A stretch of DNA of 64,000 nt from an uncultured Candidatus Saccharibacteria bacterium (GTDB taxonomy: Bacteria; Patescibacteriota; Minisyncoccia; Phycocordibacterales; UBA9973), in contig CAYZYV010000002.1 of the NCBI GenBank assembly GCA_964482735.1, positions 22,061 through 86,060 on the forward strand, read 5' to 3'. Below the pieces are notes generated by a model. It saw only the letters and a list, made by a program, of their open reading frames with translations, made no database searches and had not been told where the DNA came from. The position numbers and the translations under genes were made by a program. Below, one piece after another: positions 4,458-62,612 of this stretch. Position 1 is the first letter of the stretch, and every line of letters starts with the position of its first letter.

Positions 4458-5753
4458 CTACTTTTTTAACATAGTTGAAGTTGTCTTTGGTAAATAAAGC
4501 ATAGGATCTAGATAGGATGTACTGGCAGCTATAGGCATGATAAAAGTTTTACCACTACAACTAAGGCTAGGAACTTTATCTACTTTTACCCCATCTGAAG
4601 CATAAACAGTAACGTGGAGATGTGGGCCCGTGGTGTGTCCTGTATTACCAGATAAGGCCACTAAATCCCCAGTTTTAACCCTATCACCAGATTTTGCATA
4701 AATAACAGACAAATGCCCATAAGTGCTAGATAATCCATTATCATATTTAATAAAAACCCACTTACCAAAAGAAGCACCCTTGCAATATATATCTGTATCT
4801 CCTGTCCCCACAACCGTGCCATTCCCCAGGGCGTATGTTTCGGTTCCGATAGGAGCTCTAAAATCTACTCCACTGTGTGTTCCAGAACGATATAATCTAC
4901 CTGAATCAGAGGTATATCCAAAAAGTTGAGTTATGAATATATTTTTAAGAGGCCAAGAGAAAACCACAGTACCTGGTTTTGGTAATTTTTTAGGATTCAA
5001 AATAAACTGTAGTTGGTCTTCGTAACTAGCGAGATCCTTTTCAAAAGCGTCCCTCTTCTTTATTTGTTCTGCTAATAATTTTTGGTAGTTACTTTCTTTG
5101 TTTTGAGTTTCCTTTAGAAGATTATTTTTTTCTTGTTGATTAGAAGCTATTACTTTTTCTTGCTCAGATAAATTTCTTTTAAGGTTATTTAAATTTTGTT
5201 GCTCCAACTCTTTTTCAGTTTTTGAGGCTAGGAGTTTCTCTTTTTTGTCCAGAATTTCATATATTCTATTTTTAACCTCTTGGTTTAAAGATAGGATGTC
5301 GTTATATTCCCTACTAAAATCTGATAATTTTTCACCTGATAAAAGTTTTTCTACTAAAAGAGTGTTGTCACTTTGATGCAAGCTTCTTACAGAATTAGCC
5401 AAAGCCTCTCTCGATATTATTAAAGACTTTTCTTTTGCTCCAATATCGCTAGTAATATCCTTAATTATCAAACCTGTCGCATTAATTTTTTTTTGAATTG
5501 ATTCCCTTTCCTTTACTAACTGGTTTCTTTTTAGGGTTAGCTCCTTGATTGCATTAGATAAACTTTTCTTTTCTTCACTAGTCTTTGCTATTTGATTTGA
5601 TAGATTAGCAATTTCTTTTTCTATTTTAGCAATTTGTTCGTTAGTTTGTTTTATTTGTTCTTTTACTTCTGAAGCAGTCAAGGCTATAGAAACACTTGGC
5701 CCCAAGCTTAAAATAGTAATTATAAAAATAAAATATATAACAAACTTTCGCAT
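4458..5753 (-). CDS. M23 family metallopeptidase with N-terminal coiled coil (EnvC/LytM-like)
   Basis: Signal/TM segment, a long coiled-coil region, and a C-terminal LytM domain with HxxxD, HxH-like GTHSGVDF and GHLHV motifs. Confidence 0.8.
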   Translation of the reverse strand: MRKFVIYFIFIITILSLGPSVSIALTASEVKEQIKQTNEQIAKIEKEIANLSNQIAKTSEEKKSLSNAIKELTLKRNQLVKERESIQKKINATGLIIKDITSDIGAKEKSLIISREALANSVRSLHQSDNTLLVEKLLSGEKLSDFSREYNDILSLNQEVKNRIYEILDKKEKLLASKTEKELEQQNLNNLKRNLSEQEKVIASNQQEKNNLLKETQNKESNYQKLLAEQIKKRDAFEKDLASYEDQLQFILNPKKLPKPGTVVFSWPLKNIFITQLFGYTSDSGRLYRSGTHSGVDFRAPIGTETYALGNGTVVGTGDTDIYCKGASFGKWVFIKYDNGLSSTYGHLSVIYAKSGDRVKTGDLVALSGNTGHTTGPHLHVTVYASDGVKVDKVPSLSCSGKTFIMPIAASTSYLDPMLYLPKTTSTMLKK

Positions 5754-9376: not shown

Positions 9377-11428
9377 TTACTTTTCTAATACTGTATAAGC
9401 AGTTGTGGTTTCCGGGTAGTAAAAATCTCCACTCCATTTTTCATAAACGTCACCATCTGAACTCCCACAAGTTCCTCCAGGATATGTACATTCAAAATGT
9501 TTTCCAGAAGCATTTTGAATTGTCCACTTAATCCTTATCGGAGTTCCTTTAGTTACTGTAATTTTACCATCCACTGACTCTTCACCCGTGTTTTCATTTC
9601 TAGCAGTTACTGTTACTGTCGCTTGAGAGGTAGGAATTTCAGGTATAATTACATTATAAGCTAGAGGAATATTTACCGCTATTTCTTGAAGACCATCCAT
9701 ATACGCATGTCCAGAAATAACAATATTACTGGAGTTAGTAGCCGCCGAAAGAAATGTATTCTCAGCGTAGAGTTCATCTCCTCCACATACAATTGATTCT
9801 CCAGAGAAGTCTAGCTTTTGCGTATCTAACTGGTTGGCAGTGGCGTAGAGAGGTATAGTAGAACAATGTCCAACCTTATCATAATAAACAGATGTGTTTA
9901 GTTTTATATCATCCCCATAAGAATAATCACTTTTGTCTAAGTTTGTGTTTAAAACTATTGTTCCATAAGTTGAGCTTGGGTCATAATAAGTATCTACTCT
10001 ATCTGCTGTTATGTAGTACGTCTCCGCCTTAACCACTCCACCTGGAATAAATGAAATAGCTAGAGCGAATAGAATAGCAAGCATAGCTCCTTCAATGTGA
10101 CCACTCTTTGGTTTGTCATCATGGTGATCATCTTTCTTCTTTAGATTCTTAAAGTAGATAACTAATCCTGCGATTACAAGAAGTACAAGGATGATAATAG
10201 CAATGATACCCATCTTACCCGAGAATAAATTAGTCTTTTCATTAGCTTCAAATATCAAAGCTTTTTGATCAAGTATCTTACCTGTAGCATCTAATAGAGA
10301 GATGGTTACTTCTGGATCATCACATGACTTACTAATAGTAACTGGTATCTCTATGAATCCCACTCCTGCCATTTGTGTATTTATTGGACTTTCTATACAA
10401 GATCTCTTATTTTTATTAACTATATCTGCTTGTAGAGAGATAGATGTTAGTTCCTCTTTATTCTTAGCTGATGAAGTCCAGAAGAATGCAATCTTGGCAG
10501 TTTCGTTTGCGTTGTATGAGTTCTTATCCAATGAGACGTTTTGAATTGTGGCACTGAGACCGGAGATGGTGTAAGACATCAATATGTAATTAGATTTAAT
10601 TCCGTTTGTCTCAAAATAAACCTTAGTGATATAACTTTGAGGTACTACTACTTTAGGTAATGTAAGTTTAACTAACTTTTCTTCCAAAGGTCTAAGCAAA
10701 ATGGGATTAACATCTCCACCTAGTTGAGAAACTTCTTCCCCATAAATTGTCCTATAGTGAGTTTCAAAATTAGGGTTAGTTGTTACCTCTTCGTTTAGGT
10801 TATTTTTTATGTAACAAGAAAGCACGATTTTGTCTTCCTTGGAAACTATATTCCCTCTTTCATCTTCTAGTTTGATACTTCCAGCTCTTTCTATTTCAGT
10901 TGAACAAGTTTCGCTCAAGATTTCTAGAGTCTCCATCTGTTTTGTAAAACTAACCGCCCCAAGATCTGCAATACCTAAAGGAAGACCACTATAATTACGA
11001 GCAGATATGAATACATTGTAGGTACCATCTAAATTAACTGGTGCGGTGTATTTAACAGTTTTAGAAATACTAGAATTGGCAGCTACACTTAGAACTTCAG
11101 GAAATACGTATTCATCTATAGTTTTTTGGACTTTGCTTTCTTTATCTACTACACGAATACCATACTTAACACCAGATTGTGCTCCTTGTTTATTGTTAAT
11201 ATTAAAAGAAATTTCCAAGGTGTTTCCTGTTTGGGATATTATTTTAGCGTCTTGTACGTTAATTTCAGCAAGTACGATTGTCTTGCCCTCTAGTTTTTTT
11301 TCTGTGGAGATTTTTTCTTCCGCCATTACCTTTATTGAAAAGGCAAATGAAAAAATTAGAACGATTGCTATTAAAGAGAACTTTGTTAATTTCATATTTT
11401 TAAAAATTAAAACTAATAATATAAACAA
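9377..11428 (-). CDS. Hypothetical cell-surface protein (signal peptide, internal TM plus second signal-like segment)
   Basis: 683 aa. It has an N-terminal signal peptide. A central TM (IIAIIILVLLVIAGLVIYF) is followed by KNLKKKDDHHDD. Then comes a second signal-peptide-like stretch MLAILFALAISFIPGGVVKA. Confidence 0.5.
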   Translation of the reverse strand: MFILLVLIFKNMKLTKFSLIAIVLIFSFAFSIKVMAEEKISTEKKLEGKTIVLAEINVQDAKIISQTGNTLEISFNINNKQGAQSGVKYGIRVVDKESKVQKTIDEYVFPEVLSVAANSSISKTVKYTAPVNLDGTYNVFISARNYSGLPLGIADLGAVSFTKQMETLEILSETCSTEIERAGSIKLEDERGNIVSKEDKIVLSCYIKNNLNEEVTTNPNFETHYRTIYGEEVSQLGGDVNPILLRPLEEKLVKLTLPKVVVPQSYITKVYFETNGIKSNYILMSYTISGLSATIQNVSLDKNSYNANETAKIAFFWTSSAKNKEELTSISLQADIVNKNKRSCIESPINTQMAGVGFIEIPVTISKSCDDPEVTISLLDATGKILDQKALIFEANEKTNLFSGKMGIIAIIILVLLVIAGLVIYFKNLKKKDDHHDDKPKSGHIEGAMLAILFALAISFIPGGVVKAETYYITADRVDTYYDPSSTYGTIVLNTNLDKSDYSYGDDIKLNTSVYYDKVGHCSTIPLYATANQLDTQKLDFSGESIVCGGDELYAENTFLSAATNSSNIVISGHAYMDGLQEIAVNIPLAYNVIIPEIPTSQATVTVTARNENTGEESVDGKITVTKGTPIRIKWTIQNASGKHFECTYPGGTCGSSDGDVYEKWSGDFYYPETTTAYTVLEK

Positions 11429-39608: not shown

Positions 39609-40859
39609 TTAAATAGGAAGATTAGAAGGAGGCTTTGCAATTTTGGTTTCGACTCTCTTAAAGCTAGGAGTTTCAGAAACCATTCCAGGAAAGTGGTAAA
39701 TACTAGCTAATTCTTCAGAAGATAAGACAAAGACTTTGGGCTTTCCTAGAGGGCTAAAGAATTTTAGATATTTGGGTAAATCCAAACTTAAATAAAAAGG
39801 TGGGTTAAAGAACATTCTTAATCTATAAGAATCTAATATTCTATTTTTATATTTAAATATTGTTGTTCCTAGTGGATCATCCCAAGCGTTGTCAAATTCA
39901 GTTGAATTAATTCTCTCTAATTCGTTTGAGTTTGCCAAAGTAAATTGTCTAAATATCAACTTAGCAGATCTACTTAATCCATTAAATTGATCCTCAGATA
40001 CTATTTTTTTATCTGATAAAGCAACAACTCTTATTCCACATTCAAAGTGAAGTTGCCCTAATTGATCGTTAATAGCTTTTACGACAGGTTCAACAATTTT
40101 AGGAGTTCTAATATCGGTATCAGTTTCTCCTTTTTCATTTTTTTGAATTTTTGTATAAGGTTTTAAGTATTTTAATAAGAATTCAGAAGCTGCTTCGTTA
40201 AAATCAACCTTCTTATCTTTTTTCTCGCTGTAATACTTTTTTGAGGTATTTTTTGCTAGGATTTGAATCCAAAGTTGTTGACCTTTTGTAATAGACCCCA
40301 ACAATTCTATTATAGGTGTAATAGGATCTACTTTAAATTCTTCTTTTGTACCAGCTCTCATCTCTTCCCCATATGATTTATATGTTTTGAGCGGAAAGAA
40401 GTCGTCTTTTTTCTTAGCATATTCGCACCCCCACATATACCAATCACTATCTTTAGAAAATTGAGGAATCTCATAAACATAATCCTCTACTTCTAGAACT
40501 TTAGCTTGAGGATATTGAGCATAAATTTGAGTTTGAACAAGATCTTTAATACTATTTTGAGTCCTAATATAGAAATGAACACGTCCATCTATAGATATCA
40601 TCTCTAAAGAAAACCAAAGTTTAGGATCAAAAGTATTAGAAAAGAATAATTCCATAGCAGAAGGACTTTTTGATATCTCTCTTGGAACTTGAACTTCTAA
40701 AAGGGTCCACTTGGGCTCAAGTTCATTCATTTCTTTTTTATAATAACCCCAATATTTTAGTGCTATTATCGCAAGAGGAATCGGTAAAATAAGTGCAATG
40801 AAAGTTAAAATTGCATTTAAGATATTTGTTCCTTCATTTGCTATTATTGTTTCTACCAT
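39609..40859 (-). CDS. Hypothetical membrane-anchored protein
   Basis: 416 aa with an N-terminal TM helix. No recognised motifs. Confidence 0.4.
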   Translation of the reverse strand: MVETIIANEGTNILNAILTFIALILPIPLAIIALKYWGYYKKEMNELEPKWTLLEVQVPREISKSPSAMELFFSNTFDPKLWFSLEMISIDGRVHFYIRTQNSIKDLVQTQIYAQYPQAKVLEVEDYVYEIPQFSKDSDWYMWGCEYAKKKDDFFPLKTYKSYGEEMRAGTKEEFKVDPITPIIELLGSITKGQQLWIQILAKNTSKKYYSEKKDKKVDFNEAASEFLLKYLKPYTKIQKNEKGETDTDIRTPKIVEPVVKAINDQLGQLHFECGIRVVALSDKKIVSEDQFNGLSRSAKLIFRQFTLANSNELERINSTEFDNAWDDPLGTTIFKYKNRILDSYRLRMFFNPPFYLSLDLPKYLKFFSPLGKPKVFVLSSEELASIYHFPGMVSETPSFKRVETKIAKPPSNLPI

Positions 40860-46382: not shown

Positions 46383-47231
46383 CTATAAAGGAAAAATATC
46401 GGAAAGTTCATTTGAATAATAAAAATCATAAGCTAAACCTCCAAAGGTATAATCTTTATTATCTATAGTAATAATTGATCCTCCTACATCTGGACTACTT
46501 TTGGGTTTAGAACGATCGAAACCTATATTGAAAAGTGTCGCATAGACCTCAGGTCGATTCCCAATGTCAAAACCGCTTCTTTGCCATTGCTTCTCTATTT
46601 CTTTTATGTACAAAGCGGTATATAGATATGAATAATAATGATCGTGCTGATCGGTAAATCTCGCCAATCTGTCATCGTCACTAAAATCTACCTCTTTGTA
46701 ATCTAATATGTTTTCATAATCTTTGCCTAAATAAAATATACTCTCTATATTTTTTAAATTCTCCTCAATCTTTTTTGCTGTATCCATTTTAATACCAGAT
46801 ATTCCATAAGAAAACTGGGTGTAAGTTCCAAGTATTTTTAGTGGTTCGAAATATTTTTTAAAGGATTCTCTGTTAGATGTAAAGAATCTTAATTGTTCAG
46901 GAATAATTACTGAAACAATCAATCGAGCCGGCAAATTAGTTTCATTGCTGACCTTTAATATCATTTCTTTATCTTTAATGATTCCATTTTTCAGTGTTTC
47001 CCATTCTGTAGTATTCATCCATTTTGGATTGTTTTTTATTGCTTCAATTTTTACATTCTCATTATCTTTGTTTTGATTAAAAAAAGAATTTCTAGAATCT
47101 ATACTGCCTTTAACATCGGTTAAATGTAGTTTCATTGCTACAAAAACTCCTACGAATAAAAAACCTATTGCTGCAAATAGATACAAGAAAAAACGAAATG
47201 TATTTCGAATGACTTTATGGTTTTTTAACAT
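46383..47231 (-). CDS. Hypothetical membrane-anchored protein
   Basis: 282 aa with an N-terminal TM. It sits between mreB and the holB-like gene. Confidence 0.4.
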   Translation of the reverse strand: MLKNHKVIRNTFRFFLYLFAAIGFLFVGVFVAMKLHLTDVKGSIDSRNSFFNQNKDNENVKIEAIKNNPKWMNTTEWETLKNGIIKDKEMILKVSNETNLPARLIVSVIIPEQLRFFTSNRESFKKYFEPLKILGTYTQFSYGISGIKMDTAKKIEENLKNIESIFYLGKDYENILDYKEVDFSDDDRLARFTDQHDHYYSYLYTALYIKEIEKQWQRSGFDIGNRPEVYATLFNIGFDRSKPKSSPDVGGSIITIDNKDYTFGGLAYDFYYSNELSDIFPL

Positions 47232-50262: not shown

Positions 50263-51474
50263 TTATCTTTTTGTGAAAGCCTCTTTAGGAGATAATCCTG
50301 CAGCCCTGTGTGCTGGCCACCACCCCGATACAAGACCTATTAAAACAGAGAAAATTAAAATTAAGCCTATAAACCACCAGGGTGCCATAAAAAGCTTGAT
50401 TGAATCTCCCCCGAATTGTTTTGAAAATATAGTGATGAGTAAATTTAGTAATTTTCCACCACCAACCCCTATTATAATACCCCCTATTCCACCCATTAAC
50501 CCCATAATAGAAGATTCAACTAAAAATAAATTTCTAACATCATAATCTGTTGCTCCTATGGATTTTAAAATTCCAACCTCATATATACGCTCAAGAAAAC
50601 CGACAAGCATGGTGTTAAACATCCCTATAGCAGAAACAATCAACGCTGTTATACCAAATACTCCTAAAATAATTGTAACAATGTTAGTAAATTTTCTAGC
50701 TTGAGTAACTAAATCTATACGGGCAGAAACAAAAAATCCATCTTTTTGTAACTTATCTCTTAGAGGTTCCAACACCTCAGTGCTTTTTGCTCTCACCAAG
50801 GCCTTAGTGTAAAAAGGTGGCTCTTCGGTTAAAGAAGAAGAAAACAATACAGCTGTGGGGACCAAAGAATCATCTTCAATGATTCCAGATATCTTTAGCG
50901 GTGTTTTTGTCTTGGACTCAGTGTAGGTATTAGCTATATTGTCTTGATAAAAAACAGTAAAAGATACTTCTTTATTTAAAGACGAAGCATCCGCAGGTAA
51001 GTTCATAGGGGCCAGTGTCTGACTAGTAACAACTATTCCAGGTTCTTTCTCTGATGGAATTTTACCTATGGAAGGAACAGAACCGGACAATCGATAGTAA
51101 GATGGCTCTACGATGGAATTATCTATAAGTATACTTGACTCATCAGACAAAAACATTTCTCCAGAAAAATCTGCAACAGGACTCACTTCAGCTACCTCTT
51201 CGTAGTTTTTAATATTTTCTAAATTAGCTTTTTTGATAAAAAGGTTACTTTCAGAAGGATAAGAAATTTCCATAGTAACCAATGAATCTTCTGTAGTCAT
51301 CAACTTTCCTATCAATATATACTGCAAACCATAACCAAGTGACACTAGTAGTAAAACTGTAGCAATACCAACAGACATACCTAATATAGTTAAAAGAGCT
51401 CTTTGTGGTTTATTCCTAAAAGTACGAAAAGATAAAGAAAATAGTTCACTAAATTTTAATTTTTTATTTTGCAT
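50263..51474 (-). CDS. ABC transporter permease, FtsX/MacB family
   Basis: N-terminal TM, large extracytoplasmic domain, and three C-terminal TMs. 403 aa. Confidence 0.8.
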   Translation of the reverse strand: MQNKKLKFSELFSLSFRTFRNKPQRALLTILGMSVGIATVLLLVSLGYGLQYILIGKLMTTEDSLVTMEISYPSESNLFIKKANLENIKNYEEVAEVSPVADFSGEMFLSDESSILIDNSIVEPSYYRLSGSVPSIGKIPSEKEPGIVVTSQTLAPMNLPADASSLNKEVSFTVFYQDNIANTYTESKTKTPLKISGIIEDDSLVPTAVLFSSSLTEEPPFYTKALVRAKSTEVLEPLRDKLQKDGFFVSARIDLVTQARKFTNIVTIILGVFGITALIVSAIGMFNTMLVGFLERIYEVGILKSIGATDYDVRNLFLVESSIMGLMGGIGGIIIGVGGGKLLNLLITIFSKQFGGDSIKLFMAPWWFIGLILIFSVLIGLVSGWWPAHRAAGLSPKEAFTKR

Positions 51475-52816
51475 TTTTTATTTCATCATCACAAATATTT
51501 TTATCACAGACCTCTTCTTCACAATTCAAAATCAACTCAAGTTTTTCTCCTATAGTAGAAGCAGCTCTAAAAGACAGACCGACTCCAAACTTACTATTAG
51601 ATAAATCCAAGACCTCCACTACTTTTTCGGGTGTAATATTTTCTCTTAAACGATCCGAAACTACTTGATCTATTGCTTTAACTTGAATATCTTTTAAAGT
51701 ACCAGTATACCCTTCTATAAGCCAGTTTCTTATTTCTTCGACTTCTTTATTTATAGGTAATTCTGGTCCTCTTTCTAGTATATCATAAACACAAGCCACA
51801 TTTTTACGCATTTTAATAACTTCTTCTATATAATTAGCAACCTTTTCAGATTTTTTCTTCCATAATCCCAGCCCTCCGTCTTTAAAAGGTTTGTTCAATT
51901 TATCTTTTAAGTTGTTTTTATTAATTTTCTCATCAAAACGCTCATTAACAAGATCTTCAAATCGAGATATTTCTTCTATGGAATAACCACGTAGTAAAAA
52001 GTTAGCCAGTATTCGAGCTGAAATTTTTTCATGACCCAAAACTTGTCTTTCTTTTACAGAGGAAACATCATTTATTTGATCATATAATCTCTTTGATATA
52101 GCATCAACAACGTTGCCTTTACTTACTTTCTCTACTTCCAAAACACTCCCATCTTTTATATGAAAAATTGTTTTGGCATCTTTAAGACTCCAAGCTTCGT
52201 GGGTTACCATAATTACTGTTCTGCCATCTTTTTCATTCAATTCCTTTAAAAATTCTAGTACTATTTTAGCGTTCACAGAGTCAAGGTTACCAAGAGGTTC
52301 GTCTGCAATAATAATTGGTGGATTATTAGCCAGTGCTCTCGCTATACCAACTCTTTGTTGCTGTCCCCCAGATAATTCATAAGGATATCTTGAAGCAAAA
52401 CTAGCAAGGTTTAACCTCTCTAAAAGGTTCTTCGCTTCTTCTTCGGCTCTTTCTGAACTTACCCCGACAAAAAGCATTGGCAATGCTACGTTTTTAAGCA
52501 CAGTAAGAGAAGGAATAAGGTTAAATTGTTGAAAAACAATTCCTATACCTGTTTGTCTAAAAATAGCCAACTCTTGATTTGTGAGTTCTGAAATATCTCT
52601 TCCTTGTATGTAAACATGTCCATCTTGGAATCTATCTATCCCAGAAATAGAATAAAGCATGGAAGTCTTTCCACATCCTGAAGGTCCAAAAAAGGCTACG
52701 TAATCTCCTCTCTCTATTTCTAAATTTATGTCTTTTAGGGCGTGAACTTGATTAGGTTTTCCTTTTTCGTACCAAAGATTAAGATTTTCAATTTTAATTA
52801 TTGAATCCATAAACAT
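51464..52816 (-). CDS. ABC transporter ATP-binding protein (MacB/LolD-type NBD) with ~220-aa C-terminal extension of unknown function
   Basis: Walker A GPSGCGKTS. Signature LSGGQQQRV. Walker B IIIADEP. H-loop. Residues ~230-450 carry no recognisable motif. Confidence 0.85.
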   Translation of the reverse strand: MFMDSIIKIENLNLWYEKGKPNQVHALKDINLEIERGDYVAFFGPSGCGKTSMLYSISGIDRFQDGHVYIQGRDISELTNQELAIFRQTGIGIVFQQFNLIPSLTVLKNVALPMLFVGVSSERAEEEAKNLLERLNLASFASRYPYELSGGQQQRVGIARALANNPPIIIADEPLGNLDSVNAKIVLEFLKELNEKDGRTVIMVTHEAWSLKDAKTIFHIKDGSVLEVEKVSKGNVVDAISKRLYDQINDVSSVKERQVLGHEKISARILANFLLRGYSIEEISRFEDLVNERFDEKINKNNLKDKLNKPFKDGGLGLWKKKSEKVANYIEEVIKMRKNVACVYDILERGPELPINKEVEEIRNWLIEGYTGTLKDIQVKAIDQVVSDRLRENITPEKVVEVLDLSNSKFGVGLSFRAASTIGEKLELILNCEEEVCDKNICDDEIKNAK

Positions 52817-53234
52817 TGTCTGTATAAGTAATTAATTCCTTGGGTAAAAGATTGCCCTTTATCAAAAATCCATCAATTCCTAAATCTTCAAATTTCTTCT
52901 GAATTTTTTTATCTTTTTGGCTAGAGTAAATTATTATTTTAAGATCAGAATACACTTTATTTTTTTTGATTTCAGAAATAAAATCGTATGATCTTCGAAT
53001 CTGACTTTCTATATCGTTTTTATCCCCATTTTTAGAAATTAAAATGTCTAAAAATACAACAGAAGGTCTTGTTTTCTCGTCTTCTATCAATATAGAAGCT
53101 TCTTCTAAGCTAGAGGCTAAGGATACATCGTAAATATCACCTCTTCCGTGAATCCAAAAGATATCTCTAAAGTATATTCTTGTTAATTCGTCATCATCGA
53201 TTAATAGCACTCGGTTCTTTTTGTTTTTATCCAT
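52794..53234 (-). CDS. Stand-alone response-regulator receiver (CheY-like) domain protein
   Basis: Acidic pocket LIDDDE. Phospho-acceptor Asp in VVFLDILIS. Conserved S (IIYSSQ) and K (FLIKG). 146 aa with no output domain. Confidence 0.7.
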   Translation of the reverse strand: MDKNKKNRVLLIDDDELTRIYFRDIFWIHGRGDIYDVSLASSLEEASILIEDEKTRPSVVFLDILISKNGDKNDIESQIRRSYDFISEIKKNKVYSDLKIIIYSSQKDKKIQKKFEDLGIDGFLIKGNLLPKELITYTDNVYGFNN

Positions 53235-53244
53235 AGACTATTGG

Positions 53245-56200
53245 TTACTTTACATTGTTTATAAAATTAAATGTCTCATCAAAATTCTTAAATATAACAT
53301 CTACGATTGATTCTGTCTTCTTCGGAGTAATAATTGTTCTTATTGGTAATTTTGAAGTATTTCCGACGTCATCAGTAGAAGAAACTGTAAATCTGTAAAC
53401 TGCGCCTGGTTTTAAGGCTCCTAGAATTACTACGTGATTTCTTGTTAATTCTAGATCTTCTTGTTTATTGCTAAGCTCTCCTGAAGTACTACCGGAACCT
53501 TCTTCGTAATAAACTATAGACGTAGAAGGTTCATCTGTTTGCCAGGATATTATCGTCTGGACTCTATCGGTTCTTCCTTGAACAAGAGCACTATCAACTT
53601 TAAGATTTGTAACTGATGGGGGTAAGCTATCTGTAGAAGTTTTAACATTTAGTTCCGATCCACTTTCTACGGTATTCCCTTTATTGTTAATACCAGAAAC
53701 TTTTACTACATACGAGGTGCCCGGAGAAAGATTTTCGATCTTTATGGAGTGTGATGTATTTTTTTCTTCATCTACAATTTTTGAGGTTCTACCAGTCTTA
53801 GTATTCTTATATTCAATGATAGAAGTGGTTGGTTCATCTGTGGCCCACACGACCGCAAATGAATCTTTCTTTACATCTATTATTGAAGCTTGAATCTTGG
53901 AAGCTGAAGTAGTAAATATTAAGTCGTCCGATTTTCCTATTACTCCAGGTAGAGAATAAGCTTTTGCTGAATAATGATACTTTGTGTTAGATTTTAATCC
54001 TATTAATTTAATAGAGTGACTGGTGGATTTTTCCAATGTATTAGAGGATTCTCCGTTGTATGGGTTTTCTTTACTTGAATCGTATTTTTCATCTTCTATG
54101 TAGCTAACAACCGGGAATGATTTAACATTTGTTCTGTATTTAATAGTGGCACCACTCTCTGTAATATCAACAACTTCAGGTTTATCTATAAAAGGAGGAA
54201 CTAATGAAGGTAATATAGATTCAATTGTGGTCTCGATCTCTTTCTGGAATTGTTCTACGTTATCTATCTTTTTGAGTTCTGATAAGTCTTCGCTTAGATA
54301 TTTTGTTGTAAACTCTTTGTTTTCCGAATTACCTGTATCATTTGATTTATCCATGGCACTAATCTTGAAATTATAAAGAGTACCAAGACTTAAACCGTTG
54401 AGTTTGATTATATGCCGTTGAGACCAATTATCATCAGCACTCATTAGTCCGTAATTATCTTCTTTTCCGTACTTAATGAAAGCAATAGTATCTTCATTGG
54501 TGTTAAAAGAAATGGAAGCTCCAAAAGCAGTTATGTCAGAAATTTCTATATTGGATATTTCAGGAGCGATAGAATCCAAAGTGCTAAACTTCGCTTTGTA
54601 TGCTTGGTTTTCAGCTAGTAATAAATCATAAAGTTCCTGAGCAACTCCTGTTATTCCACCACCTCCTTTTGAAATAATCACTTTTTCTTTTGCTGTGGTC
54701 TCAAAAGAATACTCATCGGAAGTTGTTTCGTTACCGTTTTCATCGGTGGATTTAATTACATAATAATACTGCGTACTTTCTTCTAGCTCACTAATTGTTG
54801 CTAGGTGATTTGTAACTAGAGTATAAATAAGCTCTGTTTGATTGGTATAATCTCCAGAATTTTTTCCGTACAAAACACGACCATCTGCAGGTTCGTTAGT
54901 TGTCCAAGTTACAGCTACTTGTGAATTAGTTCTTATAGGGGTAGATATATCAGATATAATAGGAGCTGTTTCATCGTCGTTAGTACTGAATGTATAATAA
55001 CTGCCACCATTAGCACTTTCTCCCGTATTACCTAATTCATCAGAACTCATAACTAAAAAGTAGTAGATTTCATTAGGAACTAACCCCGTCAAAGAAACTG
55101 AGTGTTCGGTAGATAAAACTTCATCAGTTACAGTAGAAGGAGACGTCATATCTGGATTGATAGAATAACTAACTACAGAATTAGATGGAATATTTGTCGT
55201 CCATGTAATAGTAGCTCCTGTATCTGTTTCTCCTAGCGAGGCTACACTTGTTATTATAGGTCCTGGTGTAGTAGTAAACTGAGATCTAGAAATAGTTGTT
55301 TCTCCTGCCAAATTTGTAGATGTAGTCCTAAAGTAATAAGTAGTTTCTGGGGTTAAATTATCTATATAAATATTGTGATTTAAGACTTTATCCAACGATT
55401 GTTTTGATACACTGTAAACACCTTCTTCACCTTCTCTAATCGTTCCGTATTCTATCAAACTATCTGTATAATCAGCAGTGGTCCAGACTATTCTAGCACT
55501 CGTTGATTTTACACTTGCTCCATTAATATCACTAACAAGAATTTCATTGTCTAAGATAGAAAAGGCATGAATAATATCAGATCCTAATACTGCGTTTATA
55601 GGATTCGACAAAGTTATTAATACGTTTTCTGTTTCTTCGGAAAGCTCGTCATCAAAAATCACCACTGGAATGTTTACATTAGTTGATCCGGCAGAAATAA
55701 TTCCTTCATATCCTTCTATCAAATAATCAATACCATTGCCATCTGCAGACCCTCCTGTTACAGTGTAGTTAAATTTTATATCTTCAGGATATGGAGAAGA
55801 AATATTAACTAAAATATTTGCCGTATTTACATCTTCTTTTGCTTGACTTGTAAGACTAGCGAAAGATAAAGTTGGGTAAGTATCATTATCTATAATAGTA
55901 TAAGTATAAGTGGTGTTTGAATTCAAATTAGCTCCTGTTGCACCTGTTAATTTTACAATAACAGTTTCATCGTTTTCTTTTTTAGTATCGTCAATTATTA
56001 TTAAATCTATATTAGCTTCATCTTCACCTTTTAGTATTGTGATATTTCCAGAGGCAAGAGAAAAGTCTGATTCACTCGTAGCACTTCCACTTACTTCATA
56101 AGAAATGATAACATCTACCTCTGAAACTTCTGACAAAGTTATTGGTATTTTTACAGAAGTTATATTTTCTGTATTAGACACTGTAGATAAACTAAAACCA

Positions 56201-59200
56201 ACATTTGGATTAGAATCATTATCTTCTACTGTTAAAGTAAATATATTATTTTGACCAATTTGGGCATTTATTGGATTTTTTAAAGTCACCAAAATAGTCT
56301 CAGAATTTTCTTTTACGATATCATCTATTATAGGAATATTTAATGTAGTAGTTGTTGTCCCTGATGGTATGGTTATACTGCCGTTTATCATTGAGTGATC
56401 TAATCCATAAGAAGCCGAGCCTGAAATTGAATAATCTATACTTGCATCAAAAACATAAGGTCTGTCTAAAATAATATTGACTGGAAAATTATTACCATTT
56501 TCACTGGTAGCTATACCGGAAACCTCAAATGATACAGAAGGAGCGGTTAAGTCTAAAGTTTGCAATAAACCATCTTCAGAATAATCATTTTGAGTAGATA
56601 AAGGACTAAAATTAGGCTCACTGTTATCATGCGCAACCACTCTAATCCCTAAATTATCATAATTACCACCCATTAATCCTGTTTCATTAAATGTATTCCA
56701 CAAGATAGACATGTTTTCTCCATCCTCTAGGTAGTAATCACTGTAATCAAAACTATTAGGTGTGGTATTATCAGCCATAACCCAAACAGGAGTACCTGCA
56801 AAAAAGTCAGTATTCTGACGAGTCTCTCTTCCTTCAGAAACCAAATTAGGCCAAGTGCCAAGAACTAAACCACCAATAGTATTATTGTTTCTATTGTTAT
56901 ATTTTATGACTTCATTATTTATTAAAACATAACCACTATCTTTTAAGCCAGAGGAATTAGATAATTTTAAAGAAGTTCCATCGTAAGGATTATCACTCAA
57001 GGTTAATCCATTGTAATAAAACAAATACTCTTCAAAAGAAGGGTTATCTTTTTCATAGACGGTAGAATCTGTTATCTTGTATGTAACTACAACATTTCTT
57101 TCGTTGTTTTGAGCAACAATAACATTATTTATTATTGCAGATTGGTTAAGAACCCCACCACCCCCTTCTCCATAATTTTGTAAACCATCAGCCTTTACTA
57201 TTAAATCATTTCCTTGCCGAACAGAGATATTCCCATAAATATCAACCACTGAAATCAAAAACTTATGTATAAAAGATGGGGTGAGGTTTTTATACAGATA
57301 AAAATCTGTATTAACATCTGAAAGAACTCCGTCTTCCACTTCTCCTTCCTTATAAAAATTGGTTCCATCTGGTGAAATAAATTTCTCTATCTTGAAATGA
57401 GAAAAGTTTTGATATGACATTTTTAACCACCCTAGATACATAGCATAGTAATGGGTTTCCACATTAGAAACATCTTGTACTACAAAAGATTTTTCATAAA
57501 TAGGATCTGGCGATTCAAGGGTTACAATATTATTTGCATCTTCATTATTAAATAAATCTCTAAATCTTACTCCGGCTATCTTAGAATTAATTTGACTATC
57601 AAAAGACCATGGTACAGAAACTTCATCGCCAACCATTTCCACCCACCCTGTATCCATCATTTCTCCATTAGCATTAGATCTAAAATCTACAACTCGATAT
57701 TCTATATAACCAGAACTTTCTATAGGCCTTTTTATTTTAATTAATGCACTATTTTCTACTCCAACAATTCCAGCATCTAATGTTGCTGATAATTTTTCGT
57801 TCTCAAAATAAGGAATCTTGGTGTCTATGGATATCCCTTCACTTGAAGCACTTGATAAATTGTGAATGTTTTCTCCATCATCCACAGTAACTCTAATGAA
57901 GAGATCATCTCCTGATATTGACGAATCGTGTCCTCGAACAATATTTTTTACATCCAAAACAGCTTCGTGTGTAGTATAAGAAGATTCGTTTACTTCTTTA
58001 AGAGAAATATCTCCCTGTCTCAAAATAGGACTACTAGAAAAAACCAAAACAGAGGCATCTGCCCAATCAGAAGATTCTCCTACTTTATATTCTATTTTAG
58101 GAAGAACCTGGCCTGGGTAATTTACACCATGACTAGTATCCACATCTTTTACTTCATAAGTAAGTAAGACTTTTCCAAGATCTGCACTGTTCCTGTCTTG
58201 TATTTGATATGCTAGTACGTTTTTAATCTCAGGAGGTTTGTTCATCTCATAATCTATGCCTACCGATTGAACAACAGGCGTTGAATATCCTTCTGGATTA
58301 ATTTCTAATTTATATTGGAAATATCGATCATCACTACCAGAATTTAGAGGGTGGAGAGAATTCATTACTACACCCTTATTTTCTATTTTAAAATAATCTG
58401 TCTCTTCTCCTGTGCCAGAAAAACCATACCATGAAGACCAATTAGCTTTATCTGAGGATGTTCTAACCTTAATCAAAATTTTAGAAGTCTCTGATTCACC
58501 TGAAGCACTCCAGGACACTTTACTTAATCCAGATTCAGAATCTTCAGTATCAAAAATTGATGATATAAGATATCCATTAACGTATTCACTATAATTAAAA
58601 GTTATAGAATCGAAGGTGGGAGTAACTTCTGAATTGTTAGTAGATAAATTAACTCTATACTGAACGTATCTTTTATTACCCAAAGCTAAAAGGCTTCCAC
58701 CATCCAAAATAGTATTATTCCAATTTGTCCAACTACCATCTACTGTATTTGTATTTCCAGCTCTAACATCCACTGTTATATTTTGACCATTAAGAGTAGT
58801 TGAGTAATTAACTGAATTTAAAATGACTTGTTTTCCAAAATCCACAACAGGAGAAGTGTAAGAACCTTCTGTGTTATATGTATTAGTACCAGCCGACATA
58901 TTAGAATAAGAAACTGAGGCCTTTTTAACTAAAACAGGATAAGCCTTGTTTTCTCTTGTAGTATCACCAAGTTGTCCATAATCATTTCTTCCCCAAGCGT
59001 AAACTGTTCCATCGTTGTTTATGGCATAAACGGTATGCATATCAGACGTCAAAGATTTTATACTTCCTAAATACCCAGAATTATTTTCACCAACCACTTT
59101 AACTGGAACATTTCTATTTGTGGTGGTACCATCCCCTAATTGTCTATTGCTATTATTACCCCAAGAATATACCGTACCATCAGTTTTAAGTGCATAAGCA

Positions 59201-62022
59201 GAAAGTTCTCCAGCTGCCATTTTTGATACACCACTCAAAACACCTGTTCCACCTTCTCCTAAAACCTTGACGGGTGTATTCCTTTGATTGCTTGAACCAT
59301 CTCCTAATTGTCCATAATCATTTCTTCCCCAAGCGTAAACATTACCATTAATATCAATTGCATAAACCGAATTACTCTTGCTAGGAATAATATCTACTAT
59401 ATTAGAAAGGAAACCAGTTCCTCCAACTCCTAAAACTTGAACTGGGGTATTTTTTTTGACATTTGTTCCATCTCCCAACTGACCGGATCCATTGTGTCCC
59501 CACGCGTAAACAGTTCCGTCGTCTTTAAGAGCATAAACAGAGTAAGAAGTTGGAATTATTTTTGTAATCCCTGTTAAATATCCAGTACCTCCAACTCCTT
59601 TTACTTGAACGGGGGTATTATTCTGATCGTATGTACCATTTCCTGATTGACCATCATTGTTTTGTCCCCAGGCATAAACCGTTCCGTCATCTTTAAGAGC
59701 ATAAACTGCATACGTATACATAGAAGGGGCAATTTCTTTTATCCCAGTTAAATATCCAACACCTCCAACTCCTAAAACTTGAATAGGAGCATACTCGTTA
59801 TAAATTGTCCCATTTCCTAATTGTCCATAAACATTTCTTCCCCACGCGTAAACAGTTCCGTCATCCTTAAGAACATAGGCACTTTCTCCTAAAGATTCTA
59901 ATTTTAGAATATCACTTAGATAACCATTATTTCCAACACCTTTAACTTGAACCGGTGTTGATGTAGAAGCATAACTTCCATCTCCTAATTTACTATTATT
60001 GTTGCTCCCCCAAGAAAATACAGTGCCATCAGTTTTTAGAGCAAAAGCAGCAGCACCAGTAGCGCCTGTCCCACCCGACACTAAACTTTTTACACCTGTA
60101 AGATACCCAATATTATTTACCCCTTTAACTTGGACTGCAAAACTTCTGTCATCTAAATCTCCATGACCTAATTGTCCATCGTTATTTCTACCTAAAGCGT
60201 ATACAGAACCATCTTTTTCATATAAAAAAGAATTACCGGAATTATTTCCTGTTGTAATATTTATTTCTGAACTCAGACCTTCTTTGATATTGGTAAAATT
60301 TCCAATATTTTCTAATTGAATATTGACTGGAATGTTTTTACTAACTATAGTAGTATCTCCTAATTGGCTGCCATTATTTTGTCCCCAGGCGTAAATAGTC
60401 CCGTCGTTTTTAATGGCATAAATTGAATTAGATTTTCCAGCTACAATCTGCTTTACATTATTAAGACTACCTTCACCGGTTATATCTTTAACTAATACAG
60501 GTGTTGATCTGTTGGAATTAGTACCATCTCCTAATTTACCATTACTATTACTACCCCAAGAATATATAGTATAGTCATTTCTTAAAATATAAACAGAATT
60601 GGAAGTAGCACTGATTTGTTTAGCATTATCCAAATAACCAGTTCCACCCAACCCTTTAACTTGAACTGGAGTGTTTCTATGGGAAGTAGTACCGTCTCCT
60701 AATTGATAACTACTATTTTGCCCTAAAGAATATATTAATCCACCACTAGATTTAAGTATGGCAAAATTAGTATTGGTAACTATTTGATCTATATTTTCCA
60801 AAACCCCAACACTGTTGACGCCCTTAACTTGAACTGGCGTATTTCTGTCTGTACCAGTTGTTCCATCCCCTAATTGTCCATACCCGTTATACCCCCAAGC
60901 ATAAACTGTTCCATCATCTTTAAGAGCATATGCAAAATTGTTTGCAGATGATAAGTCTATAATATTTGTTAAGTAGCCACTTCCATCTACACCTTTCACT
61001 TGAACAGGAGTATTGCTTTGTGTGGTTGTTCCATCTCCTAGTTGTCCGTTATTATTTTGCCCCCAAGCATAAACTGTTCCATCATCTTTAAGAGCATAAA
61101 CCGCATTACCAGAAGATAATACTTTTTTAACACCCGTTAAAAATCCTACACCTCCAACACTCTTAACTTGTACAGGGGTTTTTGCGTTAGCAACAACAGA
61201 ACCATCTCCTAATTGTCCATAATCATTTCTTCCCCAAGCGTAAACATTTCCATCATTATCTACAGCCAACGTAGTATTTGTGTTTGCAACAACGTCTTTA
61301 ATATTGCTTAAATACCCCACACCAGAAACTCCCTTGACTTGAACAGGAATATTTTTATTTGTAATAGTATCGTCTCCTAGTTGCCCGTATCCGTTATATC
61401 CCCAACCATACAATGTTCCATCATTTTTTAAAACAAAAACAGAAGTGTCTGCTGCCACTATTTTTCTTGCATTGTCTAAATATCCAATACCACTAGAATC
61501 AGTCACTCTTTGGGGTGTAGATCTGTTTGAACTATTAGTACCGCTACCTAATTGTATATTTGTGTTTTTCCCCCATGACCAAACCCCTCCATTGGAATCT
61601 ATTAAGTAAACACCTGTTCCGTTTGAGGTGGTAGTAATCTGAATCTCTGACATACCAGATCTGTCCAATCCAACGGAAGCAGTTTCTCCAGTACTCACTA
61701 TTTCAGTTTGAGAGTTTACACCACCACTAAAATCAGAGTCAGATGTTTGAACTTTAGCACCGGAAGATGTAGAGGCAGAAATATTTTCTCCAATATTTAA
61801 ATTATTATTTTCTGTTATATATGACCAACCAGTTTTGTTCAGTTGATGAGTAGCAATCTCACTAGATTCAAGACCTGACCAATTATTTTGAGTAAAAGAA
61901 TAGGTGGCAGCTTGTGCAATTTGAGTATTAAATATTTGTCCAAAAACTAAAAGCAAAACAAAAACAAAAGAAAGTGATACTTTCCCTACTTTTAAAAGTT
62001 TTTTAAAATATTTTTTGTACAT
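53245..62022 (-). CDS. Giant secreted surface protein (2925 aa): signal peptide, 16 RCC1 beta-propeller repeats, beta-sandwich region, three Calx-beta domains, multiple FN3-like domains
   Basis: Signal peptide ends at AQA-ATY. There are sixteen repeats of the pattern VY[AS]WGxNxxGQLGDGTxxxxxTPVQVKGV. The three Calx-beta modules each carry the DDxxxExxE pattern (IIDDIVKENSE, IIDDTKKENDE, IFDDELSEETE). The C-terminal W...Y..R FN3-like modules follow. Confidence 0.8.
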   Translation of the reverse strand: MYKKYFKKLLKVGKVSLSFVFVLLLVFGQIFNTQIAQAATYSFTQNNWSGLESSEIATHQLNKTGWSYITENNNLNIGENISASTSSGAKVQTSDSDFSGGVNSQTEIVSTGETASVGLDRSGMSEIQITTTSNGTGVYLIDSNGGVWSWGKNTNIQLGSGTNSSNRSTPQRVTDSSGIGYLDNARKIVAADTSVFVLKNDGTLYGWGYNGYGQLGDDTITNKNIPVQVKGVSGVGYLSNIKDVVANTNTTLAVDNDGNVYAWGRNDYGQLGDGSVVANAKTPVQVKSVGGVGFLTGVKKVLSSGNAVYALKDDGTVYAWGQNNNGQLGDGTTTQSNTPVQVKGVDGSGYLTNIIDLSSANNFAYALKDDGTVYAWGYNGYGQLGDGTTGTDRNTPVQVKGVNSVGVLENIDQIVTNTNFAILKSSGGLIYSLGQNSSYQLGDGTTSHRNTPVQVKGLGGTGYLDNAKQISATSNSVYILRNDYTIYSWGSNSNGKLGDGTNSNRSTPVLVKDITGEGSLNNVKQIVAGKSNSIYAIKNDGTIYAWGQNNGSQLGDTTIVSKNIPVNIQLENIGNFTNIKEGLSSEINITTGNNSGNSFLYEKDGSVYALGRNNDGQLGHGDLDDRSFAVQVKGVNNIGYLTGVKSLVSGGTGATGAAAFALKTDGTVFSWGSNNNSKLGDGSYASTSTPVQVKGVGNNGYLSDILKLESLGESAYVLKDDGTVYAWGRNVYGQLGNGTIYNEYAPIQVLGVGGVGYLTGIKEIAPSMYTYAVYALKDDGTVYAWGQNNDGQSGNGTYDQNNTPVQVKGVGGTGYLTGITKIIPTSYSVYALKDDGTVYAWGHNGSGQLGDGTNVKKNTPVQVLGVGGTGFLSNIVDIIPSKSNSVYAIDINGNVYAWGRNDYGQLGDGSSNQRNTPVKVLGEGGTGVLSGVSKMAAGELSAYALKTDGTVYSWGNNSNRQLGDGTTTNRNVPVKVVGENNSGYLGSIKSLTSDMHTVYAINNDGTVYAWGRNDYGQLGDTTRENKAYPVLVKKASVSYSNMSAGTNTYNTEGSYTSPVVDFGKQVILNSVNYSTTLNGQNITVDVRAGNTNTVDGSWTNWNNTILDGGSLLALGNKRYVQYRVNLSTNNSEVTPTFDSITFNYSEYVNGYLISSIFDTEDSESGLSKVSWSASGESETSKILIKVRTSSDKANWSSWYGFSGTGEETDYFKIENKGVVMNSLHPLNSGSDDRYFQYKLEINPEGYSTPVVQSVGIDYEMNKPPEIKNVLAYQIQDRNSADLGKVLLTYEVKDVDTSHGVNYPGQVLPKIEYKVGESSDWADASVLVFSSSPILRQGDISLKEVNESSYTTHEAVLDVKNIVRGHDSSISGDDLFIRVTVDDGENIHNLSSASSEGISIDTKIPYFENEKLSATLDAGIVGVENSALIKIKRPIESSGYIEYRVVDFRSNANGEMMDTGWVEMVGDEVSVPWSFDSQINSKIAGVRFRDLFNNEDANNIVTLESPDPIYEKSFVVQDVSNVETHYYAMYLGWLKMSYQNFSHFKIEKFISPDGTNFYKEGEVEDGVLSDVNTDFYLYKNLTPSFIHKFLISVVDIYGNISVRQGNDLIVKADGLQNYGEGGGGVLNQSAIINNVIVAQNNERNVVVTYKITDSTVYEKDNPSFEEYLFYYNGLTLSDNPYDGTSLKLSNSSGLKDSGYVLINNEVIKYNNRNNNTIGGLVLGTWPNLVSEGRETRQNTDFFAGTPVWVMADNTTPNSFDYSDYYLEDGENMSILWNTFNETGLMGGNYDNLGIRVVAHDNSEPNFSPLSTQNDYSEDGLLQTLDLTAPSVSFEVSGIATSENGNNFPVNIILDRPYVFDASIDYSISGSASYGLDHSMINGSITIPSGTTTTTLNIPIIDDIVKENSETILVTLKNPINAQIGQNNIFTLTVEDNDSNPNVGFSLSTVSNTENITSVKIPITLSEVSEVDVIISYEVSGSATSESDFSLASGNITILKGEDEANIDLIIIDDTKKENDETVIVKLTGATGANLNSNTTYTYTIIDNDTYPTLSFASLTSQAKEDVNTANILVNISSPYPEDIKFNYTVTGGSADGNGIDYLIEGYEGIISAGSTNVNIPVVIFDDELSEETENVLITLSNPINAVLGSDIIHAFSILDNEILVSDINGASVKSTSARIVWTTADYTDSLIEYGTIREGEEGVYSVSKQSLDKVLNHNIYIDNLTPETTYYFRTTSTNLAGETTISRSQFTTTPGPIITSVASLGETDTGATITWTTNIPSNSVVSYSINPDMTSPSTVTDEVLSTEHSVSLTGLVPNEIYYFLVMSSDELGNTGESANGGSYYTFSTNDDETAPIISDISTPIRTNSQVAVTWTTNEPADGRVLYGKNSGDYTNQTELIYTLVTNHLATISELEESTQYYYVIKSTDENGNETTSDEYSFETTAKEKVIISKGGGGITGVAQELYDLLLAENQAYKAKFSTLDSIAPEISNIEISDITAFGASISFNTNEDTIAFIKYGKEDNYGLMSADDNWSQRHIIKLNGLSLGTLYNFKISAMDKSNDTGNSENKEFTTKYLSEDLSELKKIDNVEQFQKEIETTIESILPSLVPPFIDKPEVVDITESGATIKYRTNVKSFPVVSYIEDEKYDSSKENPYNGESSNTLEKSTSHSIKLIGLKSNTKYHYSAKAYSLPGVIGKSDDLIFTTSASKIQASIIDVKKDSFAVVWATDEPTTSIIEYKNTKTGRTSKIVDEEKNTSHSIKIENLSPGTSYVVKVSGINNKGNTVESGSELNVKTSTDSLPPSVTNLKVDSALVQGRTDRVQTIISWQTDEPSTSIVYYEEGSGSTSGELSNKQEDLELTRNHVVILGALKPGAVYRFTVSSTDDVGNTSKLPIRTIITPKKTESIVDVIFKNFDETFNFINNVK
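58990..61640 (-). repeat. Sixteen tandem RCC1-type coding repeats (~150-165 nt each) inside the giant gene
   Basis: Repeated GQLGDG / TPVQVKG peptide motifs. Coordinates are approximate, derived from amino-acid positions ~130-1010. Confidence 0.6.
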
Positions 62023-62076: not shown

Positions 62077-62106
62077 ATTATATCAATTTAAAAAGATAAC
62101 CGCAAT
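62077..62106 (-). promoter_or_regulatory. Candidate promoter of the giant-protein operon (TTGCGG-17-TGaTATAAT)
   Basis: On the minus strand the sequence is aaTTGCGGttatctttttaaatTGaTATAATg, ~45 nt upstream of the ATG at 62022. Confidence 0.3.
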
Positions 62107-62354
62107 TAAAAAGTTCTTTTTATTTAAAATTTTAAAAAATCACCGCGTAGAAAAAATTATTTTTATGGAAAACAGATAGTTCTGTTTTTCGTACCTTGAT
62201 TATCAATAAAATTAAAACAATTTAATGGTTCATCAAAAAACAATAAACATTTTATCTATAATCTGTAATTTTGTATTCACATAATTTATCTTAAATGTTG
62301 TAAAAATTAATCCATTAATTATTGTTGCTTATTAATGTTTAGTAATGTATAATA

Positions 62355-62612
62355 ATGTTTATGAATGAGAATTTTATACAAATCAAAGAAGCATCAGAAT
62401 TACTGGGGGTCTCAAAACTAACCCTTAGGAATTGGGACAATAGTGGAAAGCTTGTTTCTTACCGACATCCTATTAACAATTATCGTATATATAAGAAATC
62501 TGACATTTTAAAACTTCTAGACAGCTTCCCTCTTTCAAATACTATTAAAAATAAAAAAGTGGAGAAAAAAGAAAAAGTCTACAAATTAAAAGTTATACAC
62601 TTAAAAGATTAA
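62355..62612 (+). CDS. MerR-family-like helix-turn-helix DNA-binding protein (short, no effector domain)
   Basis: IKEASELLGVSKLTLRNWDNSGKLVSYRHPINNYRIYKKSDI matches the MerR N-terminal HTH consensus (TLR.YE..GLL.P.R...gYR.Y...D). 85 aa. Confidence 0.55.
   Translation: MFMNENFIQIKEASELLGVSKLTLRNWDNSGKLVSYRHPINNYRIYKKSDILKLLDSFPLSNTIKNKKVEKKEKVYKLKVIHLKD

Follow-up and report, generated by a model that had tools for sequence, protein, structure and literature searches.

The 64,000-nucleotide window analysed here, which is the whole stretch taken from contig CAYZYV010000002.1, carries on its minus strand four tightly packed genes for a giant surface protein, a stand-alone CheY-like receiver (REC), an ATP-binding cassette (ABC) ATPase and a MacB-type permease. 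Little is understood of how bacteria of the candidate phyla radiation (CPR, or Patescibacteria) attach to hosts and control that attachment, and the majority of their large surface proteins carry no annotation. In this report, we consider it highly probable that giant protein and ABC system work together as a single functional module; with recurrence in about 45 other loci, their adjacency lies far above chance. The module is probably a device, hitherto undescribed, that uses ATP to hold, move or release a giant adhesin. As to its specific mode of action, we give an even chance to a type VII ABC mechanotransducer that is gated by REC and would act on the giant protein, after its export, by way of stalk and tail. 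The features of the module are as follows.

62077-62085, minus strand: extended -10-like promoter element TGATATAAT, a consensus match about 55 nucleotides (nt) upstream of the giant gene ATG
53245-62022, minus strand: giant surface protein gene, a single open reading frame (ORF) with Pfam matches to RCC1, Calx-beta, Pur_ac_phosph_N and fn3
61909-62022, minus strand: Sec-type signal peptide, amino acids (aa) 1-38, with a lysine-rich n-region, a hydrophobic core and the junction AQA↓A, from hydropathy
59008-61620, minus strand: variable head, an RCC1 beta-propeller region, aa ~135-1005 (Pfam RCC1 in 16 stretches, WD40_RLD)
56533-58992, minus strand: conserved 'mid' region, aa 1011-1830, without a Pfam family, its first half predicted all-beta
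55423-56532, minus strand: region of three Calx-beta domains, aa ~1831-2200 (PF03160, three stretches)
53314-55422, minus strand: conserved FN3/Pur_ac_phosph_N stalk, aa ~2201-2903, 42-79% identical in every linked locus
53248-53313, minus strand: near-invariant C-terminal amphipathic tail, ESIVDVIFKNFDETFNFINNVK-COOH, kept even in the most distant loci
52794-53234, minus strand: gene for the stand-alone receiver REC, 146 aa (PF00072, 34.7 bits against a cut-off of 30.2)
51464-52816, minus strand: ABC ATPase gene, 450 aa
52127-52816, minus strand: nucleotide-binding domain (NBD) of the ATPase, aa 1-230 (PF00005, E 1.5e-33; ABC_tran is the sole Pfam match)
51464-52126, minus strand: C-terminal extension (C-ext) of the ATPase, aa 231-450, about 220 aa, all-alpha, behind a variable linker
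50263-51474, minus strand: gene for the MacB-type permease, 403 aa, with transmembrane segment (TM) 1, a MacB_PCD of about 210 aa (50695-51321) and TM2-4 (FtsX domain), from Pfam

We approached the linkage between the giant protein and the ABC system from three independent seeds, namely REC, the C-ext and the last 330 aa of the giant protein. With REC or the C-ext as seed, REC, an ATPase with C-ext and a MacB-type permease were found together in 12 of 12 distinct loci (L001-L013), and in ten of these an adjoining large protein is 42-79% identical to that of the window over its last ~725 aa; the upstream sequence of L007 is absent, and the giant-module count therefore stands at ten of the 11 loci with usable flank. 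A metagenome scan with the last 330 aa of the giant protein yielded 38 true homologous loci, a few of them near-duplicates, and ABC genes and/or REC adjoin in 33 of them, in 32 right downstream in the same orientation and in one (L044) divergently upstream. The linkage spans Moranbacteria, Nomurabacteria, Paceibacteria and unnamed Patescibacteria, in differing genomic flanks. Even distant relatives of the C-ext (25-29% identity), in L072, L074 and L075, directly follow giant FN3/Pur_ac_phosph_N genes, with a 4-nt overlap of giant and ATPase genes in L074. Gene order is permuted yet the genes stay linked in L013, L044 (divergent) and L072, the order being Ddl, ATPase, permease, REC, inserted toxin-antitoxin genes and giant gene in L013, and REC, giant gene, ATPase and permease in L072. 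The initial annotation of this DNA had called for such a neighbourhood search and would have given up the idea of a system had the linkage not been conserved in related genomes; the linkage proved conserved, with REC, ATPase and permease recurring beside giant proteins, but the RCC1 repeats expected to be the shared feature were not, their place being taken by the FN3 stalk and the tail.

Additional genes were observed within some of these loci. Between REC and the giant gene of L013 (10966-13003) lie two HepT/MNT-type toxin-antitoxin pairs and an aspartyl-protease gene, insertions that split the module without dispersing it. In a subclade with L005 (3241-5088), L028, L031, L039-L041 and L053, an extra gene for a CarboxypepD_reg-like secreted protein of about 615 aa stands between the giant gene and REC.

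The giant gene of the window is one unbroken ORF of 2925 aa, with Pfam matches to RCC1 (16 stretches), WD40_RLD, Calx-beta (three), Pur_ac_phosph_N (six stretches) and fn3 (two stretches). Hydropathy identifies the signal peptide as its sole hydrophobic segment, and because this signal is of the Sec type, the protein is predicted to be exported via Sec. The mature N-terminus carries the conserved motif ATYxFxQxxWSGG directly after the signal peptide, and the same layout of signal and motif is present in L013, L042, L044, L049, L074 and L075. At the opposite end, a PDB profile search matched the stalk to FN3, its conservation climbs towards the C-terminus, and it ends in the amphipathic tail …SIVDVIFKNFDETFNFINNVK. 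The terminal peptide follows the consensus RTIITPKKTESIVDVIFKNFDETFNFINNV[KR] and can be made out even in the most distant loci, for example as …VVQIIIENFEDAFGWFKNLK in L074. In eight of eight lineages tested, the helical hydrophobic moment of the tail is 0.35-0.61, above that of 93-99.6% of shuffles; by hydropathy the tail is not a TM segment, and a motif search of the giant protein found neither LPxTG nor GGxGxD (count 0). When conservation is scored as the position-averaged share of homologues that have the residue of the window, the tail blocks of the giant protein reach ~0.5-0.85 versus 0.53 for the extracytoplasmic domain of the permease.

In the window, the head of the giant protein consists of two RCC1 propeller regions, with homologues only in L029 (54%) and L038 (37%), and other heads are Kelch in L075 and Lcl_C in L003. 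In the latter (L003:2305-9990), the giant protein is encoded in two ORFs of 2020 and 519 aa with the Lcl_C head in place of RCC1, which marks an exchange of heads at a chromosomal site that is otherwise the same; a frameshift or an error of assembly could account for the split. The mid region is 25-44% identical in most homologous giant proteins, and a homologue search with it returned six proteins. This region had no Pfam match, a weak FN3 match was its sole hit in the PDB profile search, and an AlphaFold2 model built on a six-sequence alignment had low confidence (pLDDT 43), with the first ~350 aa beta-rich. The Calx-beta region is present in many, not all, of the homologues. Together, these comparisons mark the C-terminal FN3 stalk and tail as the conserved partner, whereas the RCC1 part is a lineage-specific head outside the conserved system.

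The ATPase and the permease belong, by predicted fold, to the type VII (MacB/FtsX) ABC superfamily. The motifs of the ATPase are intact (Walker A GPSGCGKT, LSGGQQQR, IIIADEP and H-loop THE), so that Walker A, Q-loop, LSGGQ, Walker B with catalytic Glu and H-loop, as expected of a type VII ATPase, are all present. The permease has four hydrophobic segments (24-58, 261-295, 316-351 and 358-389) and matches both PF12704 (37.5 against a cut-off of 27) and PF02687 (66.3 against 25.5), giving the type VII arrangement of four TMs, a MacB_PCD between TM1 and TM2 and a C-terminal FtsX domain. Its closest solved chains are YtrF of B. subtilis (9o9x, E 6.6e-27), then MacB and Spr0695; MacB chains were matched at E 1e-16 to 1e-21, LolC/E/F were more remote and FtsX was marginal (E 1e-4). 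Its TM core scored 0.73-0.75 in conservation and its extracytoplasmic domain 0.53; across 33 homologues of the ATPase, the corresponding scores were 0.73 for the NBD, 0.21 for the linker and 0.50 for the C-ext. The C-ext has no Pfam or PDB relative, a PDB-sequence profile search of the ATPase having matched the NBD only. One search with it returned 21 close fragments, and an exhaustive phmmer search returned 138 clusters among 1.84 billion representatives, many of the matches being fragments; in most full-length matches the domain forms the C-terminal end of proteins of 415-450 aa, and in some of ~590 aa. A reading of two G-V-G-L motifs in the C-ext as helix-hairpin-helix was an unsupported lead. 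In L034 (5043-7526), and likewise in L035, the ATPase is 828 aa long and has three Bact_surface_Ig-like domains between NBD and C-ext, an unusual position for such domains in a linker that is presumably cytoplasmic.

REC has the features of a CheY-like stand-alone receiver, that is, a receiver fold and a phospho-acceptor pocket and no output domain. Among 32 homologues, D13, D15, D63 and K126 are invariant and S104 is at least 90% conserved, and because these phospho-acceptor residues are conserved, REC appears able to be phosphorylated. The family shares the motif IYFRDIFWIHG, with the invariant patch FRDIFWIHG right behind the acidic pocket; it comprises 97 clusters in 5.8 billion proteins, consists of stand-alone receivers of ~145 aa, and its named members come from Moranbacteria, Nomurabacteria or Paceibacterota. 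REC belongs to the module in the Paceibacteria clade. The position of REC between giant gene and ATPase is confined to the clade with a 57-79% identical tail; the more distant L013 and L044 retain REC in permuted positions, a different REC subtype adjoins in L072 and L076, and this position is without a REC in L046, L049, L054, L055-58, L059, L060, L074 and L075. Because several clades thus have no REC at this place, we consider REC a putative accessory regulator.

The arrangement of the four genes is consistent with joint expression. All four ORFs lie on the minus strand at exactly the coordinates of the initial annotation, and a Pfam search recovered from each of the four proteins the domains listed there. 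Read from the sequence, the gap between the giant gene and REC is 10 nt, as had been stated; the tight packing was also borne out, but the overlaps of 22 and 10 nt were each wrong by one. REC and ATPase overlap by 23 nt when counted from the first ATG of the ATPase (52816) and by 17 nt from the second (52810), and ATPase and permease overlap by 11 nt. The 17-nt overlap also appears in the gene calls of L001, L003 and L004, and the ATG at 52810 is the likely true start of the ATPase; the retention of this overlap among loci points to coupling between REC and ATPase. A sequence scan found no terminator-like site at any of the gene junctions, in agreement with the earlier reading. The total of eight terminator-like sites is at chance level (shuffle expectation 6.1 +/- 2.6), two weak minus-strand matches falling inside the giant ORF. 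At the downstream end of the module, the stop of the permease gene abuts the stop of a convergent PriA-like gene. It is therefore plausible, from these signals and spacings, that the four genes are a single transcription unit. A hairpin with a 13-bp stem (62164-62193) lies in the 330 nt that separate the giant gene from a divergent MerR-type helix-turn-helix gene (62355-62612); it had no Rfam match and is a possible operator or attenuator.

In type VII ABC systems, no substrate passes through the bilayer. They pass ATP-driven motion to extracytoplasmic partners, as FtsEX does with EnvC, PcsB or RipC (PMC7668044, PMC10694151), or draw hydrophobic anchors and compounds from the outer leaflet, as do LolCDE, YbbAP-TesA and MacB (PMC12646458). 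From the fold, in conjunction with the conserved linkage to an exported giant protein, we infer mechanotransmission on an extracytoplasmic partner in the present module as well. We propose a model whereby the extracytoplasmic domain and the transmembrane groove of the permease would engage the giant protein, once exported, at its stalk and tail, and ATP binding and hydrolysis would be relayed across the membrane by mechanotransmission, as in FtsEX-EnvC/PcsB or LolCDE. The giant protein might as a result be held, be changed in conformation, or be released by extraction of its amphipathic anchor. Phosphorylated REC would bind the ATPase, possibly via the C-ext, and switch its activity, and attachment to a host or substrate would thereby come under signal control.

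Several observations weigh against this model. The contacts of stalk and tail with the permease, and of REC with the C-ext, are putative. In L012 the trio has no large protein within 2.9 kb upstream or 7.4 kb downstream, and five of the 38 tail-seeded loci have no ABC genes in the sequence at hand, being limited by the contig or having a second giant gene in tandem. The C-ext occurs without an adjoining REC in L046, L049, L054, L060, L074 and L075, and is thus not solely a dock for REC. No histidine kinase is annotated near any locus, within the annotated neighbourhoods. A chance-level promoter match at 53319-53291, inside the 3' end of the giant gene, makes an internal promoter possible. Finally, the ABC family has other partners, because a related trio in L076 sits in a type IV pilus cluster that has no giant FN3 gene.

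The trio of L076 (7795-21551) consists of a REC of 123 aa, an ABC ATPase of 866 aa, weakly matching the C-ext, and a MacB_PCD/FtsX permease, and the surrounding cluster encodes PilB-like T2SSE, PilC, N_methyl pilin-like proteins of 749 and 203 aa, PilM and PilN. In L071 (3060-6074), an ATPase with a C-ext 27% identical to that of the window is preceded by a gene for a coiled-coil protein with an SLT_2 lytic transglycosylase domain; its coiled coil matches DUF3450 and, weakly, CC_PcsB, an architecture like that of the partners PcsB and EnvC. Because of these two loci, our analysis suggests that the motor family serves several envelope partners, and such a range would fit a mechanotransducer better than an efflux pump. 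We tentatively speculate, while holding it somewhat less likely than the general mechanism above, that the module is a surface machine, so far unrecognised, of ultra-small episymbiotic bacteria and provides ATP-powered, signal-controlled attachment to and detachment from a host, in which a REC-switched type VII motor with a novel cytoplasmic domain mechanically actuates or releases, via the tail, an adhesin with an exchangeable head, and that relatives of the same motor are coupled to type IV pili in L076 and to PcsB-like wall hydrolases in L071. Whatever its role, the module offers a recognisable CPR marker in its tail motif, C-ext ATPase and REC motif FRDIFWIHG, and a testable hypothesis in which a giant adhesin is tied to an energy source and a signalling input. 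If this is true, the type VII mechanotransmission family would gain a class of giant FN3 partners, a receiver input and a new cytoplasmic domain.

Three other explanations of the linkage have to be weighed. The one that survives best, although we judge it unlikely, holds that the ABC pair is an FtsEX-like regulator of the cell wall or division, and that the giant FN3 protein is a wall scaffold or a hydrolase-regulating partner in envelope growth and not an adhesin. FtsE is indeed the second-best NCBIfam match of the ATPase (190.7 bits), and the high, housekeeping-like conservation would suit such a role; nevertheless, the scores fall far short of the FtsE and FtsX cut-offs (190.7 versus 264.85 and 41.6 versus 255), and the permease has a MacB_PCD of ~210 aa and is nearest to YtrF/MacB (E 1e-27 to 1e-20), with FtsX at E 1e-4. 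Genomic position speaks for it in part: the module lies between ftsA/ybeY and mreB in the window and L003, and a full Ddl gene adjoins it in L013, while L004 has just a weak Dala_Dala_lig_C match ~4 kb downstream; the flanks of L004, L005 and L075, however, are unrelated to division. The pairing of a C-ext ATPase with a PcsB-like coiled-coil and SLT protein in L071, and the presence in the window of an EnvC-like protein with coiled coil and M23 domain (4458-5753) where no other FtsX was seen, also fit this explanation, but the swappable propeller and lectin-like heads resemble binding modules.

A second explanation, which we find quite improbable, is that the transporter has as its substrate a small hydrophobic molecule at the site where the adhesin makes contact, in lipid or lipoprotein extraction or in peptide or drug efflux as in MacB, YtrEF, YbbAP and Bce, that it leaves the giant protein itself untouched, and that the linkage reflects co-expression only. 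The closest solved relatives of the permease, YtrF, MacB and Spr0695, accord with a transporter of this kind, as does the ability of type VII systems to draw hydrophobic compounds from membranes (PMC12646458). So does the common view that CPR bacteria have no lipid synthesis of their own. Co-expression, however, does not explain why the linkage survives permutations of gene order and deep divergence, with the C-ext down to 25% identity, or why conservation of the giant protein at its cell-proximal end matches that of the transporter. None of the partners yielded a substrate-binding or lipid-binding domain, no BceS-like kinase was found, and the permease has four TMs, not ten. Least probable of the three is a dedicated exporter or targeting device resembling a type I secretion system (T1SS), in which the tail would be a secretion signal read in the cytoplasm by the C-ext: the co-occurrence of a family-specific tail with a family-specific cytoplasmic C-ext, the position of the tail at the extreme C-terminus as in T1SS signals and the location of the giant gene beside ABC genes, typical of T1SS adhesins, are outweighed by the canonical Sec signal peptide, which together with the conserved mature N-terminus is present in every lineage checked, by a permease with four TMs and a MacB fold and without ABC_membrane, C39 or CLD, by the lack of RTX repeats in the giant protein and by the absence of a membrane-fusion or outer-membrane partner gene from every locus.

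The surroundings of the module provide its genomic context. The window has a GC content of ~33% and encodes housekeeping functions including GAPDH, GatB, MurG, FtsW, MraY, several aminoacyl-tRNA synthetases, MreB, RRF, an M50 protease and BipA. In synteny it is closest to L003, from a metagenome-assembled genome of Candidatus Moranbacteria (GCA_010014395), and the same genes flank the module in both: MerR, YbeY and FtsA at one end, PriA, MreB, RRF and the M50 protease at the other. Because of these housekeeping genes and the synteny with Moranbacteria L003, gene content assigns the window to the chromosome of a Patescibacteria (CPR) bacterium. The EnvC-like protein (4458-5753, minus strand) combines an N-terminal coiled coil with a DUF3450 match and Peptidase_M23, and its gene stands beside GltX, MurG, FtsW and MraY; no canonical FtsEX and no other FtsX was found within the window. 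Three minus-strand ORFs have no Pfam family (9377-11428, 683 aa; 39609-40859, 416 aa; 46383-47231, 282 aa), of which the 282-aa ORF comes after mreB, at the position expected of mreC.

Comparison with known systems places the module near several of them and, on curated model cut-offs or architecture, outside FtsEX, LolCDE, BceAB and T1SS. Like LapA-LapBCE and SiiE-SiiCDF, which are T1SSs, it has a giant repetitive adhesin-like gene beside ABC genes and a conserved extreme C-terminus; unlike them, the window protein has a Sec signal, and RTX repeats, an ABC_membrane TM domain (TMD), a membrane-fusion protein and an outer-membrane factor are missing. T1SS was rejected on the lack of a fused ABC_membrane TMD, C39/CLD, membrane-fusion protein, outer-membrane factor and GGxGxD and on the presence of a Sec-type signal, and the earlier argument against type I secretion (no RTX, no fused TMD or C39) is thereby upheld, with the Sec signal added to it. 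BceAB-BceRS resembles the module in tying a MacB-superfamily ABC transporter functionally to phospho-relay components; however, BceB has ten TMs, BceR a DNA-binding domain and BceS is the cognate kinase, whereas the module has four TMs, a bare REC and no kinase nearby. BceAB was accordingly rejected (permease of 403 aa with four TMs, REC of 146 aa without output domain, no kinase in the annotated neighbourhoods).

LolCDE and YbbAP-TesA share the fold and offer a conceptual model for ATP-driven extraction of an anchor from the outer leaflet (PMC12646458). In contrast to LolCDE substrates, the giant protein has no lipobox, and its proposed anchor would be a peptide helix and not acyl chains; LolCDE was rejected on the scores of the LolD model (TIGR02211, 200.3 against 307.75) and the LolC/E model (TIGR02212, 42 against 362.45). 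FtsEX is alike in its separate ATPase and its four-TM FtsX-domain permease with an extracytoplasmic domain, and with EnvC, PcsB, CwlO or RipC it needs no transported substrate, motion being passed to a docked secreted partner (PMC7668044, PMC10694151). The module differs from FtsEX in its full MacB_PCD, extra all-alpha ATPase domain and REC, and in its partner, an FN3 protein of 1,600-3,300 aa in which no hydrolase or coiled-coil domain was detected; FtsEX was rejected on the scores of the curated FtsE and FtsX models (TIGR02673, 190.7 against 264.85; TIGR00439, 41.6 against 255; NF038347, 32.9 against 225). Closest by sequence are MacB, B. subtilis YtrEF and S. pneumoniae Spr0694-0695, which share the MacB_PCD and FtsX architecture, and from these the module is set apart by the lack of a MacA-like adaptor gene, by its unfused NBD, by the C-ext and by the linkage to the giant protein and REC. 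The full-text literature searched contained no description of the module, in line with the initial view that the combination is not a described system. Judged from its predicted proteins, what is apparently new here is a giant FN3 partner with an invariant amphipathic tail, an all-alpha C-ext, a translationally coupled receiver and an exchangeable head.

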